Part shown: in pieces, positions 1,841 to 11,215 of the stretch
Position numbering within the stretch: the first letter of the stretch is position 1
Layout of the letters: each line of letters starts with the position of its first letter
From: an uncultured Clostridia bacterium
Lineage (GTDB): Bacteria; Acidobacteriota; Blastocatellia; UBA7656
DNA length: 11,273 bases
Assembly (NCBI GenBank): GCA_964588615.1
Contig: CAZPQE010000188.1
Coordinates: forward strand, 1-11,273
Direction: 5' to 3'
The notes under the pieces: model-generated
The model's database searches: none
What the model was told of the DNA's origin: nothing
Seen by the model: the letters and a program-made list of their open reading frames with translations, nothing else
Made by a program: the position numbers and the translations under genes

Positions 1841-1919
1841 TTCAATATCTGATCGGGTAGATTTGACTCCTGCTGAGATTAACAACAAATCAAGGTCGAT
1901 GAAAGGAGATCCCGTCGCC

Positions 1920-3122
1920 ATGAAAATCGTTCGTCCGTTCATCTCCATCCCCGGTTTGATGGTCGCAACCCTGTTGTGCGTCAGCTTCGCCTATAACCAG
2001 ACTTCTGTCCCGGCGGGACAGGGGCGCGACACCAGCGCACAGGCTCTGGCCGAGCCTTTCAAGGGCCTCACCCGCGACGGCAATGTCATCGAGGGACTGT
2101 TCAAAATCCAGGCGACCGGCGTCTCGACTGAGCCGGTGCGCAAGGCCGCTGAAGCTTTCCTCGCCGCGTTGAGCCAGGAACAGCGGGCGAAAACGCTTTT
2201 CCCCGACGACGATCCCGAATGGCGCATGTGGGACAATCGCCACTTCCCCAAACGACAGGGCGTGGGCTTCAATGAAATGACGGAGGCGCAGCGCCGGCTG
2301 GCCTTCGAACTTTTACGCGCCAGCCTCAGCGCCAAAGGGTTGCAGAAGACCCGCGACATCATGCGGCTCAATGAGACGCTTGCCGAACTGACCAACAACT
2401 TCAAAGAGTATGGCGAGTGGCTCTACTGGATCACCATTATGGGCAAACCGTCGGCCACCGAACCCTGGGGCTGGCAACTCGACGGACACCACTCGATCAT
2501 CAACTACTTCGTGCTCGGCGATCAGGTAGTGATGACGCCGACCTTCGCCGGGTCGGAACCCATTCGAGCGGAGTCGGGCAAATACAAAGGCACGGTCGTG
2601 TTGCAGGACGAGCAGAACAAGGGCCTCGCATTGATGCGCGCGCTCGATGAGGCCCAGCAATCCAAAGCCGTGATTCGCGCTGAAAAAGGCTCGAACTACA
2701 ATCTGTCGGAAGCCTACCGCGACAATCTGGTTCTGGATTACGCAGGCATTCGCGCCGCCGAATTCAACTCTGAGCAGAAAAAACTGCTCCTGGCGGTCAT
2801 CGCCGAATACGTTGGCAACATGAAAGAAGGCCACGCGCGGGTGAAGATGTCGGAGGTCGAAAAACATCTCGATCAGACGTGGTTTGCCTGGATCGGAGGA
2901 GCGGAAGCGGACAGCGTTTTTTATTACCGCATTCAGAGCCCGGTGATTCTGATCGAGTTCGATCATCAGCGGCCCATAGCTCTGGGCCGGGGCGGCCCGA
3001 CGCGCAACCACATACACACAGTCGTCCGCACGCCTAACGGCAACGACTATGGTAAAGACCTGCTCCGACAGCATCACCTGCGCCATCCGCACGATCATTC
3101 CAGACAACCGGAGGAGAAATAG
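1920..3122 (+). CDS. Secreted protein, probably DUF3500 family
   Basis: Within ORF 1863..3122 the ATG at 1920 is preceded by AAGGAG (1903-1908). It is followed by a signal peptide [29 protein letters not shown]. Conserved-looking motifs are [13 protein letters not shown] and [29 protein letters not shown] assigned the DUF3500 family from memory of its motifs, not from a search. The antisense 278-aa ORF is considered spurious. Confidence 0.6.
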
Positions 3123-3130
3123 CGGCGCGC

Positions 3131-3223
3131 TCAACTCAAGCGATACCACAGCAGCGCCAGCAGGAGGAAGATGATGAGCAGCGCGCCGAGTTGTTGAGAA
3201 CGGGTGAAACTCATGCGCTTCAT
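3131..3223 (-). CDS. Putative 30-aa single-TM micro-protein (MKRMSFTRSQQLGALLIIFLLLALLWYRLS)
   Basis: It is not in the supplied ORF track because it is too short. The ATG at 3223 lies 8 nt downstream of the TGA stop (3232-3234) of the peroxiredoxin-like gene on the same strand. It has a basic N-terminus followed by an approximately 19-residue hydrophobic helix, and a TGA stop at 3131-3133. There is no strong SD. Confidence 0.2.
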   Translation of the reverse strand: MKRMSFTRSQQLGALLIIFLLLALLWYRLS

Positions 3224-3231
3224 CGTCGCGC

Positions 3232-3759
3232 TCACTTCACGGCTTTTTTCACTTCTTCGAGCAGAGTTTCATCCGGGGGCCGGTCGGTCGGGTTCCTGCC
3301 CACGTAAGCGTATTTTATGATACCGTCTTTGCCCACGATGAAGGCCGAAGGGTGAGCTATGCCGTCGCGCTCCTTGTCGTTGAGCACTCCGTAGGATTTG
3401 ATGACTCTGCGGTCGGCGTCCGAGAGTATCTGGAATGCGGCTCCGGTCGTCTGAGCCATCGACCAGGCGAAGTTCTGATCGTCGGCGCTGATGGTTATCA
3501 GATCGGCCCCGACCCCTTTTATCTTGTCGTAGTCCTCAGCCAGCCTGGTGAGTTGCACGGTGCAGCTTGCTCACCAGAAGCCGCGATAGAAAATGATCAC
3601 CACCGGCCCGCGCGCGGTGTGTTCAGAGAGTGTGATGAGTTTGCCATCGCCGTTGGGGATGGCGAAATCCGGCGCCTTGTCGCCCACGCGGAGCGGAGCC
3701 TGGGCTAGGGCGACAAAGGAGGCAGCCATCAACAGGAGAGCGATGAGCATCGTTTTCAT
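3232..3759 (-). CDS. Secreted peroxiredoxin-like (AhpC/TSA/redoxin family) thiol peroxidase / thiol:disulfide oxidoreductase, predicted selenoprotein with in-frame TGA (Sec) at 3571-3573
   Basis: Track ORFs 3571..3759 and 3232..3558 are in the same frame and are separated only by TGA plus 4 codons. The joined protein reads MKTMLIALLLMAASFVALA|QAPLRVGDKAPDFAIPNGDGKLITLSEHTARGPVVIIFYRGFW-[TGA]-ASCTVQLTRLAEDYDKIKGVGADLITISADDQNFAWS... It has a signal peptide and the peroxiredoxin N-terminal motif VGDKAPDF. FYRGFW-U-ASC aligns with the peroxidatic-Cys block F(Y/T)FVCPTE, so the TGA sits exactly at the catalytic Cys, giving UxxC. Peroxiredoxin-like ISADD and a C-terminal region follow. Confidence 0.6.
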
Positions 3760-3814
3760 CGTGGTCAGAACTCTAGTCGGCGCGGCCTGGTGTTGTCAAT
3801 TGATGAGAGATTGC

Positions 3815-3843
3815 AAAAAACCTGTTGAGTCGAAGCTCGAATC
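3815..3843 (+). promoter_or_regulatory. Candidate sigma70-type promoter for the PilZ gene
   Basis: The -35 TTGAGT (3815-3820) is separated by a 17-bp spacer from the -10 TATACT (3838-3843), within the AT-richer divergent intergenic region 3760-3962. An SD AAGGAG (3948-3953) lies 9 nt before ATG 3963. Confidence 0.25.
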
Positions 3844-3962
3844 CGAATATACTGAGCGCATCTTAGCTGGATGTTCATCCGGTTTGAATCAATTATGGTT
3901 TCACAAAAGGAAAACCTCTTCCGGCCTCGACGGGCCTTGCCAATCTGAAGGAGCTATCTTGT

Positions 3963-4439
3963 ATGTCGGGCTTCTGCGACCGATGTGACGAAAAGACGAG
4001 CCGAATAATCAATATCGCCAAGCTGCCTGAACTGGCTGCCATAGCCCATCTGGGCTATCGCCAGGTTTGCGATGCCTGTTACGAAGACCTGCTGGCGGAA
4101 GCGGGCGAGGTTGAAGACAGCGACGAGGATCGCAGGGTCGAGCAGCGAGCGAAAGTTTCCATCAGGGCGCGGGTCGAGGGGAACACCTCGCACCTGGAAA
4201 CTTTCTCCGAAGAGATGCTCATCGAGGAGATAAGCCCTTCGGGGCTGAGGCTGCACACCGGGCGCGACCTCGATCCCGGCGCGGTGCTCAAAATCACCGT
4301 TCCCGCTTATGGCTTCGAGACCACCGCCATCGTGCAGGTGGTCTGGCGCGACGGAGGCCAGCGCAGCGCGGGTCTCAAGCTCGTGGAACCGGGCGACGGC
4401 TGGGACAAACTCTGGCTCGAACATGGAACGGAAGAATAG
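3963..4439 (+). CDS. PilZ-domain protein with N-terminal Cys4 zinc ribbon (putative c-di-GMP receptor)
   Basis: It has a strong SD. The N-terminus carries CDRC...CDAC (C5, C8, C36, C39). The C-terminal half carries the PilZ signature RRVEQR (RxxxR) and EEISPSG (D/N-x-S-x-x-G with E in place of D/N), followed by a beta-barrel-like sequence. Confidence 0.6.
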   Translation: MSGFCDRCDEKTSRIINIAKLPELAAIAHLGYRQVCDACYEDLLAEAGEVEDSDEDRRVEQRAKVSIRARVEGNTSHLETFSEEMLIEEISPSGLRLHTGRDLDPGAVLKITVPAYGFETTAIVQVVWRDGGQRSAGLKLVEPGDGWDKLWLEHGTEE

Positions 4440-4606
4440 TTCTTTGCCCTTCGTCATTGGTCATTTGCTGGTAATCTCTGCTCAGAAATTTGCCCTTCAA
4501 GCACTTCGAACAAGGCGCAGGCAACTGACAAAGAACAAAGGACCAATGACAAAGGACGAATGACAAATAGTTGCTTTGCCGCAAAGACTCGACTAACCTA
4601 CCCCGG

Positions 4607-5926
4607 ATGACTGCGAATCACTCGATATCTTTTTTGCGCTGCATAGAAGAAGAATGCCGGGCGCAATATCCCACGAACGAGAAAATCTATTCCTGCACGG
4701 CGTGCGGCGGCCTGATCGATGTCGCGTATGATTTTCATCTATCGGCAGGCGGCGAAGAATTGAAAAGCGTCTTCAGACAACGGCGGGCCAGCGATGAGGC
4801 AATCGACAGGAGCGGCGTGTGGCGCTTTAGAGAACTGCTGCCGTTTCTCGCCGACCTTTCGCGCGTGGTCACGCTATATGAAGGCAACACTCCCGTCTAT
4901 GACGCGCCTCGCTCTGCTGCACGCGCCGGACTCGATGCGCTTGGCTTCAAGCATCAGGGGATGAACCCAACGGGTTCGTTCAAAGACAACGGGATGACGA
5001 CGGGCGCAAGTCAGGCTCGCGCGCTCGGCGCGCGAGCTGTCGCCTGCGCTTCGACCGGAAACACATCAGCTTCCGTTGCGGCCTACGCTGCCAGAGCCGA
5101 TATGCGCGCATTCGTCTTCATCCCTGCGGGGCAGGTGGCCTATGGCAAGCTCTCTCAATCGCTCGAATACGGCGCGATGGTCGTTGAGATCGAAGGCAAC
5201 TTCGACGATGCCATGCGACTCGTGCGCGAGATAGCTGAAGAAACTGACATCTATCTTTTGAACTCGGTCAATCCGTTTCGGCTCGAAGGACAGAAGGCGA
5301 TCATCATCGAGATGATGGAACAACTCTCGTGGCGCGCGCCCGACTGGATAGTCGTGCCGGGCGGCAACCTGGGCAATTCGTCTTCGTTCGGCAAGGCTCT
5401 GCGCGAGCTTTACGATTTGAAACTGATTGATCGCCTGCCGCGCCTTGCCGTCATTCAGGCCGAGGGAGCCGCGCCGTTTTACCATCTGATCGAGTCAGAC
5501 AGGAGCGCGCTTCGATCAATCGCTCATCCGGCTACGCTTGCGACTGCCATAAGGATCGGCAACCCGGTGTCGTGGAAGAAAGCTCTGCGCGCTCTTCGAT
5601 GGACTGACGGAATCGTCGAGCGGGTGAGCGAGCAGGAGATAGCCGACGCAAAAGCCGTCATCGGAAGCGACGGCATAGGATGCGAGCCTGCGTCTGCTGC
5701 CACGCTTGCGGGAATAAAACGACTCGTCGCGCGGGGAGTGATCGAAAAGGGCGCAAGCGTCGTAGGAGTGCTGACGGGCAACATGATGAAAGACCCGTCC
5801 TACACGATCGATTATCACACCGACTCGCTGAAGTTCGGTGAGCAACTGATCAAAGGCAATTTCGCAAACCGGCCTGTCCGCGTTCCGGCGGACAAAGACG
5901 CCATCAGGCGAATTCTGAATCTGTGA
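4607..5926 (+). CDS. thrC: Threonine synthase (PLP-dependent, fold type II) with N-terminal zinc-ribbon
   Basis: The PLP-lysine motif NPTGSFKDNGMT (cf. TGSFKDRG) is present, together with the glycine-rich GGNLGN loop and an N-terminal CIEEEC...CTACGG ribbon typical of one threonine synthase subfamily. I prefer the ATG at 4607 (MTANHSISFLRC...) to the TTG at 4571 given by the ORF track. Confidence 0.85.
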   Translation: MTANHSISFLRCIEEECRAQYPTNEKIYSCTACGGLIDVAYDFHLSAGGEELKSVFRQRRASDEAIDRSGVWRFRELLPFLADLSRVVTLYEGNTPVYDAPRSAARAGLDALGFKHQGMNPTGSFKDNGMTTGASQARALGARAVACASTGNTSASVAAYAARADMRAFVFIPAGQVAYGKLSQSLEYGAMVVEIEGNFDDAMRLVREIAEETDIYLLNSVNPFRLEGQKAIIIEMMEQLSWRAPDWIVVPGGNLGNSSSFGKALRELYDLKLIDRLPRLAVIQAEGAAPFYHLIESDRSALRSIAHPATLATAIRIGNPVSWKKALRALRWTDGIVERVSEQEIADAKAVIGSDGIGCEPASAATLAGIKRLVARGVIEKGASVVGVLTGNMMKDPSYTIDYHTDSLKFGEQLIKGNFANRPVRVPADKDAIRRILNL

Positions 5927-7618: not shown

Positions 7619-8194
7619 ATGTTTTCAAACATCAGTGCGCTTTCGATATTCCTCGGCATAGCGGCCATAGGATTTCTCTTTCTGCTCATCTCGCTCATCT
7701 TCGGAGGAATCTCCGACCACTTCGATGCAGGGCATGGTTTCGATCACGACCTCGGACACGGCGGGCCGGGGTTTTTCAGTTCGCGGGGCATAGCCGTTTT
7801 CATCACCACCTTCGGCGGATTCGGAGCCATAGGCATCTATCGCGGCGTCGGCATCCTTCCCAGTTCGTTCATAGGCTTCGGAGGCGGAATGGTGATGGCC
7901 ACGCTGGTCTATTTCTTCGCCCGCTTCCTCTACGGCCAGCAGGCCACAAGTACAGTCGCTTCTTCTGATCTCGTAGGCCGCTCCGCTCAGGTGTCTGTGG
8001 GCATACCCGCAGGCGGAGTGGGGCAGGTTCGCTGTCTGGTAGGCGAAAGCATCGTCGATAAGATCGCCCGCTCCAAAGACGGCAACGCCATCGCGCTCAA
8101 CTCGGTGGTGAAGATCGAAGAGATCGTAGGCGAATCGGTCATCGTCAGCACCGTAAACAGTCAGCTTCCCGCAGGCAACAGGCCCGAAGCGTGA
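7619..8194 (+). CDS. NfeD-like membrane protein (flotillin-associated, short NfeD/YuaF/YqiJ type)
   Basis: N-terminal hydrophobic helices are followed by a Gly-rich segment (FGGFGAIGIY, FIGFGGG) and a C-terminal OB-fold-like soluble domain (GRSAQVSVGIPAGGVGQVRCLVGESIVDKIARSKDGNAIALNSVVKIEEIVGESVIV). It lies immediately upstream of the flotillin gene, as in the yuaF-floT and yqiJ-yqiK gene pairs. Confidence 0.75.
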   Translation: MFSNISALSIFLGIAAIGFLFLLISLIFGGISDHFDAGHGFDHDLGHGGPGFFSSRGIAVFITTFGGFGAIGIYRGVGILPSSFIGFGGGMVMATLVYFFARFLYGQQATSTVASSDLVGRSAQVSVGIPAGGVGQVRCLVGESIVDKIARSKDGNAIALNSVVKIEEIVGESVIVSTVNSQLPAGNRPEA

Positions 8195-8222
8195 GCCTGC
8201 TTCAGGTAGGAGGACACTCGTC

Positions 8223-9797
8223 ATGAATATGGAAACCTTAGTGATTCCGATCACTGTCCTGGTGATCATTCTGGCGTTAGTGATCGCAATGGTGGTGATG
8301 GCAAAGAACTACATCAAGGTTCCGCCAAACGCCGCAGCCGTTTTTTCAGGACGCAAGCGCAAACTTGCCGACGGACGCACAGTAGGCTATCGCATAATCA
8401 AGGGCGGCGCAGCATTGCGCATCCCGCTGCTTGAAAAAGTCGATTACCTCTCGCTCAATGTCATCACCATCCCTCTGGAAATACGCCGCGCCTACACCCT
8501 CAAGGGCGTGCCTGTATCGGTCAAAGCAGTGGCCAACGTCAAGATCAAAAGCGACGACGTCTCGCTGCAAGCCGCTGCCGAGAGATTTCTCGGCATGTCG
8601 ATTCAGGAAGTGCAGCGGGTGATTTTTCAGACCCTCGAAGGCCACCTGCGCGCGATACTCGGCACGCTGACTGTCGAAGAGATCAACAACGACCGACAGA
8701 GCTTCGCTCAAAAACTCACCACAGAAGCTGCCTCGGACCTCGAACGCATGGGAATAGGCGTAGATGTTCTCACCATTCAGGAGATCAGCGATGAAGAGGG
8801 CTACCTCGACGCGCTCGGCAAACGCCGCACTGCCGAAGTCAAACGCGACGCCGACATCGGTCAGGCCGAGGCCACCCGCGATTCCAAGATCAAGTCCAGC
8901 CTCGCCATGCAGGAAGGCGAAAAGGTCAAGCTCGACACCGAAGCCAATATCTCTCTGGCCCAGCGCGACCTCGAAGTGAAAAAAGCTCAGTATCAGGCCG
9001 AGGTCGAAAAAGAGCGCGCCACAGCCGAGCAGTCCGGGCCGCTCTCTTCGGCCAAAGCGCGGCAGGCAGTCATCGCCGAAGAAGTGCGCATCGAGAGAGT
9101 GCGCACGCAGGAGCAGATTTCAGTTCAGGAACAGGAAATACTCAGAAAAGAAAAAGAGCTCGAAGCGACTGTCGTCAAACCCGCCGACGCCGCGCGCACG
9201 GCTGCCGTGCTCAAGGCCGAAGCCGCAAAGCAGTCGGTCATACTCGAAGCCGAAGGCCGAAAGGCATCGCTCATCGCCATAGCCGAAGCCGATCAGGAAC
9301 GCCTCAAAAAGGAAGGCCAGGGACGCGCCGCCGCCATCGAGGCCGAAGGCAAGGCCGAGGCTTCGAAGATAGAAGCCATCGGACTCGCTCAGGCCAAAGC
9401 CATCGAAGCGCAGGGAGTCGCTGAAGCAAACGCCATTTTGAAGAAAGCCGAAGCGTGGAAACAGTTCAACGAATCGGCAAGACTACAAACTATCCTTGAG
9501 AAACTGCCCGCGATACTTCAGGCGACGGCTCCGGTATTCGGCGCAGTGGCCGCGCCTCTTGGAAACATCGATAAAGTTGTGGTCATCGAGCAGGGCAACG
9601 GCAACGGACAGAGCGGCGTGAGCCGGTTCGCATCGACTGCGCCCTCGGTCATCTTCGGCCTCCTCCAGCAACTCGAAGCCCTGGGGATCAATGTGCCCAG
9701 TCTTCTGGCGCAACTCGGAGTCTCGAAAGACTCAATCGCTGAAACAGCGAAGACCACTATCGTCGAGCCGATAGATGAGAACATCGAGGGACATTAA
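8223..9797 (+). CDS. Flotillin-family SPFH/band-7 protein (FloT/YuaG/YqiK-like)
   Basis: The 524-aa protein has an N-terminal TM helix and an SPFH domain (VPPNAAAVFSGRKRK...TLTVEEINNDRQSFAQKL). This is followed by a long Ala/Glu-rich coiled-coil (EA repeats: AEAEGKAEASKIEAIGLAQAKAIEAQGVAEANAI) and a C-terminal tail, which is the typical flotillin architecture. Confidence 0.85.
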   Translation: MNMETLVIPITVLVIILALVIAMVVMAKNYIKVPPNAAAVFSGRKRKLADGRTVGYRIIKGGAALRIPLLEKVDYLSLNVITIPLEIRRAYTLKGVPVSVKAVANVKIKSDDVSLQAAAERFLGMSIQEVQRVIFQTLEGHLRAILGTLTVEEINNDRQSFAQKLTTEAASDLERMGIGVDVLTIQEISDEEGYLDALGKRRTAEVKRDADIGQAEATRDSKIKSSLAMQEGEKVKLDTEANISLAQRDLEVKKAQYQAEVEKERATAEQSGPLSSAKARQAVIAEEVRIERVRTQEQISVQEQEILRKEKELEATVVKPADAARTAAVLKAEAAKQSVILEAEGRKASLIAIAEADQERLKKEGQGRAAAIEAEGKAEASKIEAIGLAQAKAIEAQGVAEANAILKKAEAWKQFNESARLQTILEKLPAILQATAPVFGAVAAPLGNIDKVVVIEQGNGNGQSGVSRFASTAPSVIFGLLQQLEALGINVPSLLAQLGVSKDSIAETAKTTIVEPIDENIEGH

Positions 9798-10573: not shown

Positions 10574-11215
10574 TCAGTGCTTGCCCGGAGAGAGTGCGAC
10601 GCCTTTTCGTTGAGCGGTTATGTAAGCCTCGACTGCCAGCATTCGCGGATCGTCGAGCGCGATGGGTTTTCCCTTCATAGGGTTTTCGATGCACCAGTTG
10701 ATCATATCGCGGAGGGCAGCGACTTTTTTCAACTGGGTCTGAAATTTGGGATAAGTTTCAGGGTGAGTGTTGGAGCCGTTCGGGTGGCACATATCACAGG
10801 ATATTCCTATCGTGCCGCCCAGCCCTTTCCAGTCGTGAAAGAGCTTGTTGCCTTCCTCGACTATGCGCTTCTGCTCTCTCTCCCAGGTCAGCCGGTCTCG
10901 TTCTGTCCACTTCGATGTCTGCTTCTGCCCGGCTGAGACCTGGGCCATCATTTTGGCCGCGACCTGACGGGCCATCTCAGGCGGCATCGCTTCGCCCTCG
11001 CGGATGCCCGCGACTTCCATAGTGGATTTGCCGTCGCAAAGCTGAACGACGAGGTTTCCGCTGTCGCTCTTCACTTCCGCATGTTTCGGCTGATTCTGCT
11101 GCGCGGCGGCGACTGCGCCGGGGCTGACGGATCGACCTGCGGTGTCGGAAAACAAAAATGCAAACGCCATCGATGCGAACGCAACGAGAGCCAGCAGCCT
11201 GGAAAGTTTTTTCAT
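10574..11215 (-). CDS. Secreted mono-haem c-type cytochrome
   Basis: SD GGAGGAA lies 6 nt upstream of ATG 11215. The signal peptide is MKKLSRLLALVAFASMAFA. There is a single CxxCH haem-binding site (GISCDMCHPNG). The downstream NPMKG provides a candidate axial Met. Confidence 0.75.
   Translation of the reverse strand: MKKLSRLLALVAFASMAFAFLFSDTAGRSVSPGAVAAAQQNQPKHAEVKSDSGNLVVQLCDGKSTMEVAGIREGEAMPPEMARQVAAKMMAQVSAGQKQTSKWTERDRLTWEREQKRIVEEGNKLFHDWKGLGGTIGISCDMCHPNGSNTHPETYPKFQTQLKKVAALRDMINWCIENPMKGKPIALDDPRMLAVEAYITAQRKGVALSPGKH

Follow-up and report, generated by a model that had tools for sequence, protein, structure and literature searches.

A Blastocatellia redoxin gene with an in-frame UGA, very probably encoding a selenoprotein of the UxxC peroxiredoxin-like kind

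Described selenoprotein redoxins and the gene in the window

This work concerns a redoxin gene interrupted by an in-frame UGA codon in a stretch of 11,273 nucleotides (hereafter the window; contig CAZPQE010000188.1 of assembly GCA_964588615.1), deposited as an uncultured Clostridia bacterium and placed by GTDB in the Blastocatellia, a class of Acidobacteria that is abundant in soil. Several described systems can be set beside its product. The Prx-like 1 selenoproteins of the Kryukov and Gladyshev and the Zhang and Gladyshev catalogues resemble it in the PF00578 domain, in a UxxC motif with selenocysteine (Sec, U) in first place and in the existence of CxxC homologues; the redoxin differs from them in forming a clade confined to Acidobacteriota (Blastocatellia), in its signal peptide and in that Sec forms far outnumber Cys forms, whereas the Global Ocean Sampling (GOS) survey counted 225 Sec against 2,740 Cys forms of Prx-like 1. 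PrxU, with a TxxU motif, has in common with the redoxin the Pfam family, the overall fold and UGA recoding. The thioredoxin-like proteins ResA, TlpA and CcmG have W-C-x-x-C where the redoxin has W-U-x-x-C, and P-[ST]-x-F-[LI]-[IV] where it has HPSAFIV, and both are predicted to be extracytoplasmic; however, in sequence and fold the redoxin is nearer to BCP/PrxQ, and it contains Sec. Finally, SelL, the SelL-related redox proteins and PRX_like2 of CDD combine a peroxiredoxin (Prx)-like fold with CxxC, UxxC or UxxU, in which the second position is that of the Prx peroxidatic Cys and the other catalytic residues are absent.

SelL has been termed a Prx-like selenoprotein (PMC2398784). Published tables assign TxxU to the true Prx selenoproteins and UxxC to a separate 'Prx-like' PF00578 family (PMC2398784 Table 2; PMC13188914), of which the Geobacter protein WP_010940744.1 is one reference member. 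The UxxC proteins of this family go under the annotation thiol:disulfide oxidoreductase and, on the comparative criteria that are also applied below, rank as 'predicted with high confidence' (PMC2398784, PMC13188914, PMC1794560).

The gene and its central features in the window are as follows.

3232..3759, minus strand: predicted selenoprotein coding sequence of 175 codons (Sec codon counted), followed by a terminal TGA at 3232..3234
3571..3573, minus strand: in-frame UGA, predicted Sec codon, residue 63 (from DNA and translation, and from homologue comparison)
3562..3573, minus strand: U-A-S-C redox motif, Sec63 to Cys66 after Trp62 (WUxxC centre), from the translation

DNA and translation agree on a single minus-strand frame that runs from the ATG at 3759..3757 to the terminal TGA at 3234..3232, with the TGA at 3573..3571 as its sole in-frame interruption. 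A mechanical list of open reading frames (ORFs) gives the two halves separately, 3571..3759 (62 aa) and 3232..3558 (108 aa). The initial annotation, which saw in them two co-linear ORFs split by this codon alone, a complete AhpC/TSA-type redoxin on read-through and a UxxC redox centre completed by a Cys three residues past the TGA, proved correct on each of these points, coordinates included. Read through with Cys at the stop, the 175-aa protein matches Pfam AhpC-TSA over profile positions 1-123 of 124 (E-value 7.4e-30; residues 25-150 of the redoxin; 103.9 bits against a cut-off of 26) and also Redoxin (E-value 4.2e-24), and the sequence around the stop, FYRGFW-[TGA]-ASC-TVQL, forms a U-x-x-C motif. 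Together with the homologue and hairpin data that follow, this makes it very probable that the UGA is recoded as Sec and that the redoxin is a selenoprotein. To a specialist such a finding should be solid and unsurprising, and it leaves the understanding of Sec recoding and of such enzymes unchanged.

The UGA codon and the active site across homologues

A scan of GTDB, with one genome per species, returned 53 loci, in which the codon was then read locus by locus. The equivalent codon is TGA in 44 of the 47 acidobacterial loci that bear the motif and TGC in the remaining three, and coding conservation extends to both sides of it, in keeping with the earlier claim that the stop is not a random disruption. 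The loci fall into two groups. Group A, the secreted form of Blastocatellia type (52-75% identity, n=35), has TGA in 32 loci, which come in addition to the window gene and share its architecture, and TGC in 3. Group B is a more distant subfamily (31-38% identity) with TGA in 12/12 loci, the motif FYRGWW-U-PFC-HRQLADY, no signal peptide and a C-terminal extension of about 25 residues (L038-L051, e.g. L039:3136, L047 and L051); its hosts are Terriglobia, Acidobacteriaceae, Bryobacteraceae, Acidiferrales and one Vulcanimicrobiaceae metagenome-assembled genome (MAG). Three MAG contigs labelled 'uncultured Clostridia bacterium' (L009, L026 and L032) also hold group A genes, of 57-65% identity, which nest among Blastocatellia in the tree, and their taxonomic labels look wrong.

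The read-through product was to be compared with Cys-containing homologues according to the initial annotation, and the comparison gave the expected result: in the proteins P0001 and P0003-P0007 a Cys stands exactly at the TGA position (FYRGFW-C-GAC), and the DNA of L016, L024, L029, L057 and L058 has TGC at that very codon. The in-frame UGA thus forms, with Cys in homologues, the Sec/Cys pair by which bacterial selenoprotein genes are recognized, and it is kept in the orthologues of other organisms within conserved coding sequence, the second such mark. Codon tables show that amino acids are retained both upstream and downstream of the TGA despite synonymous drift; the Pro at -33, for example, is present in 33/33 sequences through four different codons. 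Since residues are kept while codons drift, both halves of the gene are under purifying selection as protein. In a neighbour-joining tree the Cys forms occupy at least four separate positions within Sec clades, and this scatter indicates that Sec is ancestral in the family and has been replaced by Cys repeatedly. A reassignment of the genetic code, with TGA read as Trp or Gly, was rejected because TGA is the genuine terminator of the window gene itself and of 12/32 group A and 9/12 group B orthologues, so that it cannot be reassigned genome-wide.

Database records handle the gene badly. A protein search of 5.8 billion sequences gave 185 hits; the best 120 of them comprise eight close homologues of full length, which are 56-69% identical, roughly 110 fragments of 101-133 residues that start just past the stop position, and two distant full-length CPFC proteins. 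Six of the eight close homologues have Cys and two have Trp (P0002 and P0008) at the Sec position. For P0002 (L062:103-654) the codon of this 'W' is TGA in the DNA, and table 11 yields a product that differs from the protein deposited, so the gene caller had read TGA under another genetic code. On three independent metagenome contigs, identical in sequence, the Joint Genome Institute (JGI) calls two genes, of 62 and 108 aa, in place of the redoxin. Automatic annotation therefore does split or truncate the gene, as had been foreseen, and no full-length Sec-containing record of the family is present among the proteins returned by the search. Reading through the UGA corrects a systematic error in about 110 truncated entries, NCBI MAG annotations included, each of which has its active site halved.

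The nature of the active site follows from ungapped HMMER alignments to the BCP/PrxQ structures 2cx3, 2ywn and 3hjp and to the 2-Cys Prx 6j13, in which FYRGFW-U-AS-C-TVQL is matched with FFPAAF-S-PV-C-TKEL and FYPLDF-T-FV-C-PTEI. In the Prx PxxxT/SxxC motif the conserved Thr/Ser corresponds to Sec63, the conserved Pro to Arg59 and the peroxidatic Cys to Cys66; Pro137 takes the column of the catalytic Arg, both in BCP (AKRAVF) and in 2-Cys Prx (SLRGLF). A Thermoplasma Prx from the genome scan aligns in the same way as these four structures. One further feature belongs here.

3349..3351, minus strand: codon of Pro137, predicted cis-Pro, invariant in alignments A1 and A5 and opposite the Prx catalytic Arg

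Of the four residues that define a Prx active site (PxxxT/SxxC and Arg), only the Cys at the peroxidatic position is kept. By contrast, in the alignment with ResA (4nmu), which pairs wCasC with WCKPC and hPsafivgkdg with LPTSFLIDKDG, Sec63 falls on the nucleophilic Cys that opens WCxxC, and Pro137 coincides with the Pro of PTSFLID, the cis-Pro of ResA. The WCxxC and cis-Pro pattern of ResA/TlpA/DsbE is thus present in this alignment, the cis-Pro being a prediction. An AlphaFold model was made of P0001, a homologue with Cys at the Sec position that shares 69% identity with the window protein (predicted local distance difference test, pLDDT, 88.8). In it the Sec-equivalent residue, Cys66 of P0001, lies directly before a long helix (67-85), and the second Cys of the motif falls in the first turn of this helix. 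The best Foldseek matches of the model are Bcp4, PrxQ and AhpE, with template modelling (TM) scores of up to 0.89 normalised to the target; ResA is also matched, at 0.83-0.85 with the same normalisation. The protein would thus join a peroxiredoxin-like scaffold to a thioredoxin-type active site of WUxxC and cis-Pro.

The NCBIfam models score as follows.

BCP: 62.8 bits, cut-off 140
SelL-related redox protein (NF040769): 62.1 bits, cut-off 120, residues 28-125 only
ResA: 59.8 bits, cut-off 170
PrxU: 55.7 bits, cut-off 270
AhpC: 47.3 bits, cut-off 272
PrxQ: 36 bits, cut-off 260
DsbE: 26.5 bits, cut-off 123
Tpx: 20.9 bits, cut-off 123

Membership of the SelL-related family is not indicated at 62.1 bits, well below its cut-off. 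The combination of PF00578, UxxC and CxxC homologues that characterizes the Prx-like selenoproteins is found, and by this published definition the redoxin is best placed, on its alignments, as an Acidobacteriota-specific addition to the known UxxC Prx-like thiol:disulfide oxidoreductases and not as a PrxU-type peroxiredoxin. The initial annotation had put the TGA on the peroxidatic Cys of the FxFVCPTE block and had likened the protein to PrxU, and here it did not hold. In a true PrxU-type enzyme Sec would replace the peroxidatic Cys and peroxide would be reduced by standard Prx chemistry. The strong AhpC-TSA match, the weak match to PrxU and the fact that the nearest solved structures and best structural matches are BCP, PrxQ and AhpE peroxiredoxins all speak for such an enzyme. 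PrxU, however, has Sec at the peroxidatic position and keeps Thr, whereas in the redoxin Sec lies at the Thr position, three residues before a Cys at the peroxidatic one, and Arg59, Sec63 and Pro137 stand where a Prx has its Pro, Thr and Arg; moreover, the PrxU and BCP scores reach 55.7 of 270 and 62.8 of 140 bits, and published Prx selenoproteins are TxxU, not UxxC (PMC2398784, PMC13188914). We therefore consider a PrxU-type enzyme very unlikely, because Sec takes the Thr position and the Prx Pro and Arg are absent. More generally, one should not conclude from a UxxC motif in an AhpC/TSA domain that Sec holds the peroxidatic position of a peroxiredoxin.

For the redoxin as a UxxC Prx-like protein, the most likely chemistry would be periplasmic thiol:disulfide (selenol/selenenylsulfide) exchange, because the Pro, Thr and Arg of peroxiredoxin catalysis are absent. 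The selenolate of Sec63 would attack a substrate disulfide or sulfenate, Cys66 would resolve the adduct to a selenenylsulfide, and the enzyme would be recycled by some reductant. Attack of the selenolate on peroxides, as in glutathione peroxidase (GPx), may be a secondary possibility. Our confidence in the precise chemistry is lower than in the recoding itself.

Candidate hairpins for selenocysteine insertion

A bacterial selenocysteine insertion sequence (bSECIS) had been expected inside the coding sequence, and a frozen hairpin resembling one is indeed found there. Two hairpins need to be told apart.

3535..3552, minus strand: proposed bSECIS hairpin H2, CUCACC-AGGCU-GG(c)UGAG, 18 nt, +22..+39 from the U of the UGA
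3545..3577, minus strand: alternative hairpin H1, CUGGUGAG...CUCACCAG, with the UGA in its 5' arm

Synonymous variation was measured in group A over the 32 TGA-form genes. Codons +7..+12 (CTC ACC AGG YTG GCT GAG) have a mean synonymous entropy of 0.20 bit, against 1.21 in the other 112 usable columns, and form the lowest of the 113 windows of the gene, whereas there is free variation in codons +1..+6, from which the upper part of H1 is built. Of the 18 bases of H2, only the two in the centre of the loop vary freely. H2 is intact in 32/33 group A TGA forms and in 0/5 Cys forms with readable DNA (Fisher p = 1.2e-5, a value that overstates independence, as the five Cys forms cluster in three lineages). 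The Cys form P0003 (L057:448) keeps CTC ACG AGG CTG GCT GAG, that is H2 with a single synonymous change, which looks like the fossil of a recent Sec-to-Cys switch; in P0006 (L058:396) and in the L016/L024/L029 clade the H2 sites have diverged further.

Group B has a comparable element. Its codons +5..+8 (CGC CAG TTG GCG) are invariant; their entropy, 0.0 compared with 1.08 elsewhere, is the minimum over 123 windows. They form the hairpin CCGCC-AGUU-GGCGG (-9.4 kcal/mol), which starts 11 nt after the UGA. The published bSECIS consensus asks for an apical loop of 3-9 nt with the pattern N1-G-[G/U]-N-N2, a spacing of 16-37 nt and a minimum free energy (MFE) of -7.5 kcal/mol or lower (PMC13188914). 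Both hairpins fit in loop size, in the G-[G/U] pattern and in spacing, the apical loop beginning 24 nt after the UGA in group A (AGGCU) and 16 nt after it in group B. Like the bSECIS of Escherichia coli fdhF, a minimal SelB-binding hairpin, H2 is short, lies within the coding sequence about 20 nt past the UGA, has a single bulged base and shows G then G/U in its small apical loop; it differs in its unrelated sequence, in a bulge on the 3' side and in being weaker than the energy threshold of the model. When the fetched loci were scanned for other in-frame TGA codons accompanied by the same loop motif, the redoxin gene and a few chance matches were all that appeared. It is likely that H2 is the SelB-binding element. 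The phylum would then offer two conserved and compact candidate SelB-binding hairpins, which could serve to train bSECIS predictors that still miss many bacterial elements.

Several results weigh against this interpretation of the gene and must be taken into account. The MFE of H2 is -4.5 kcal/mol alone and -6.1 with its flanks, short of the -7.5 of the consensus, while H1 folds at -13.7 kcal/mol and competes with it. A 67-nt fold from the UGA is no more stable than shuffled sequences (z = 0.69), Rfam searched at permissive thresholds returned chance snoRNA and CRISPR matches only, and as both hairpins are near-invariant, covariation counts neither support nor reject them. Neither the window nor 28 kb of the source contig nor about 330 kb of homologous loci contains selA, selB, selD or a tRNA-Sec gene (the tRNA-Sec search took in the window and 48 loci), and a search of the accessible literature for Blastocatellia or Chloracidobacterium together with selenocysteine gave nothing relevant. 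For the protein, no NCBIfam model reaches its cut-off, which leaves subfamily and function uncurated, and among the neighbours across loci no conserved partner gene hints at a substrate. In the phylum at large, Sec-decoding Acidobacteria with three selenoprotein families are on record (PMC1794560), and Occallatibacter riparius is a Sec-decoding acidobacterium (PMC12013277). The present gene indicates a dependence on selenium in Blastocatellia, a class for which the literature search gave no earlier mention of selenocysteine.

The competition between the two hairpins deserves closer attention. The 3' arm of H1 is CUCACC, which is also the 5' arm of H2, and the two are therefore mutually exclusive. 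In the lower helix of H1, whose 5' arm is fixed by coding, 98.8% of alignment cells are paired, compared with only 76% in the upper helix; covariation is weak. As a bSECIS, H1 was rejected: its loop lies only 9-12 nt past the UGA, its apical part varies freely and it leaves the frozen GCU GAG codons unexplained. We prefer H2 because it, and not H1, accounts for these codons. A ribosome positioned on the UGA would presumably preclude H1, which may be a by-product of the resemblance of UGGUGA to GGCUGA or a regulatory toggle.

In the mechanism that we propose, a ribosome at UGA-63 would meet H2, with G-G in its apical loop, about 20 nt downstream, and this hairpin would recruit SelB with Sec-tRNA(Sec), so that selenocysteine would be inserted instead of termination; the true terminator, also TGA, has no such hairpin. 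The pre-protein would then be exported by its N-terminal signal peptide, which would be cleaved off to leave a mature domain of about 155 residues, with a BCP/PrxQ-like scaffold and a ResA-type site composed of Trp-Sec-x-x-Cys at the start of a helix and the cis-Pro loop. Taken as a whole, Sec recoding through H2 in an exported thiol:disulfide redoxin appears to us a highly likely explanation of the locus. A broader proposal would make the family an ancestral, almost obligately selenium-dependent component of the Acidobacteriota, periplasmic in Blastocatellia and cytoplasmic in Terriglobia and their relatives, wholly missed by annotation, and would have a two-state H1/H2 switch govern Sec insertion in Blastocatellia: H1 would sequester the UGA and the 5' arm of H2, which could form only after a ribosome has melted H1. 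We consider this broader proposal improbable; if it were true, the switch would allow the recruitment of SelB to be timed or tuned.

The UGA might also be decoded otherwise than as Sec, either as Cys, through a tRNA(Cys) of SelC* type that works with a paralogue of SelB, or as some other amino acid, through an acidobacterial allo-tRNA acting as opal suppressor. The sequence data presented here do not identify the inserted residue, selC* tRNA(Cys) may read UGA in a SECIS-like manner, and 8/4 and 9/3 allo-tRNAs, possible nonsense suppressors, occur in Acidobacteria (Mukai et al., PMC5389517). However, selC* has been reported in Firmicutes, Thermodesulfobacteria, Nitrospirae and Proteobacteria and not in Acidobacteria (PMC5389517), a general suppressor needs no conserved hairpin and conflicts with TGA as the terminator of the same genes, and a UGA at a redox-active Cys position is the classical signature of a Sec/Cys pair. 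Such decoding is thus highly improbable in our view, and Sec is preferred. That the locus is a pseudogene, contains a sequencing error or has a genuine stop at this codon, be the outcome a disrupted redoxin or two peptides made by termination and re-initiation, can be regarded as effectively excluded, for although gene callers make two genes and the downstream ORF in the window can start at GTG, the three metagenome contigs carry the identical TGA-containing sequence independently, the TGA is shared by 44 species-level genomes that keep the amino acids amid synonymous drift on both sides, no restart codon is conserved (the truncated proteins start differently, MQLTRL against MAEDY) and the catalytic motif would be divided between two peptides.

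Predicted export signal and genomic neighbourhood

The redoxin of the window begins with a probable export signal.

3697..3759, minus strand: predicted Sec-type signal peptide MKTMLIALLLMAASFVALAQA, cleavage site between AQA and P, read from the sequence

A hydrophobic N-terminus is found in all full-length group A homologues and in group A only, and the P0001 model shows it as a helix of low confidence (pLDDT ~55) that lies apart from the fold. It is consistent with an exported redoxin from which the signal peptide would be cleaved.

On the far side of its start the gene faces two divergent neighbours, a PilZ-domain gene (3963..4439, plus strand; a weak Pfam match) and the threonine synthase gene ThrC (PALP; 4571..5926, plus strand), an arrangement that recurs, also around Cys forms, in 13-14 Blastocatellia loci. 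The idea of a conserved operon partner was rejected, as PilZ and ThrC alone are syntenic and both are divergently transcribed. Downstream, a small ORF follows closely.

3131..3223, minus strand: 30-codon ORF MKRMSFTRSQQLGALLIIFLLLALLWYRLS with one hydrophobic helix, 8 nt past the redoxin stop and called by JGI

This ORF was likewise rejected as a conserved partner, having no counterpart after the gene in the other 47 loci. Beyond it a DUF3500 gene (1863..3122, plus strand; 419 codons from a TTG in the ORF list against 400 residues in the JGI call) converges on the redoxin, and tblastn found no match that would make it syntenic in other loci. Cytochrome-maturation genes, which would be expected as genomic associates of a ResA or DsbE protein, are not adjacent (the neighbours are PilZ, ThrC and DUF3500), and the ResA and DsbE scores stay below their cut-offs.

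The window also holds a pair of genes for an NfeD-like membrane protein and a flotillin/Band_7 protein, with a SoxA/TsdA-type cytochrome c nearby (7619..9797, plus strand; 10574..11215, minus strand), and a CCP/MauG di-haem cytochrome c peroxidase lies just outside it (L059 7564..8703). These periplasmic redox neighbours show no conserved linkage to the redoxin.

The region between the redoxin and PilZ genes carries back-to-back promoter-like sites, at 3770..3799 on the minus strand and 3825..3853 on the plus strand, two sites where shuffled sequences led us to expect 0.4.

3770..3799, minus strand: promoter-like TTGACA, 18-nt spacer, TAGAGT, ending about 10 nt 5' of the ATG; a match to consensus from which the function is deduced

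The minus-strand site agrees with the consensus at 10/12 positions, and its location about 10 nt before the ATG suggests a very short leader for the redoxin mRNA.

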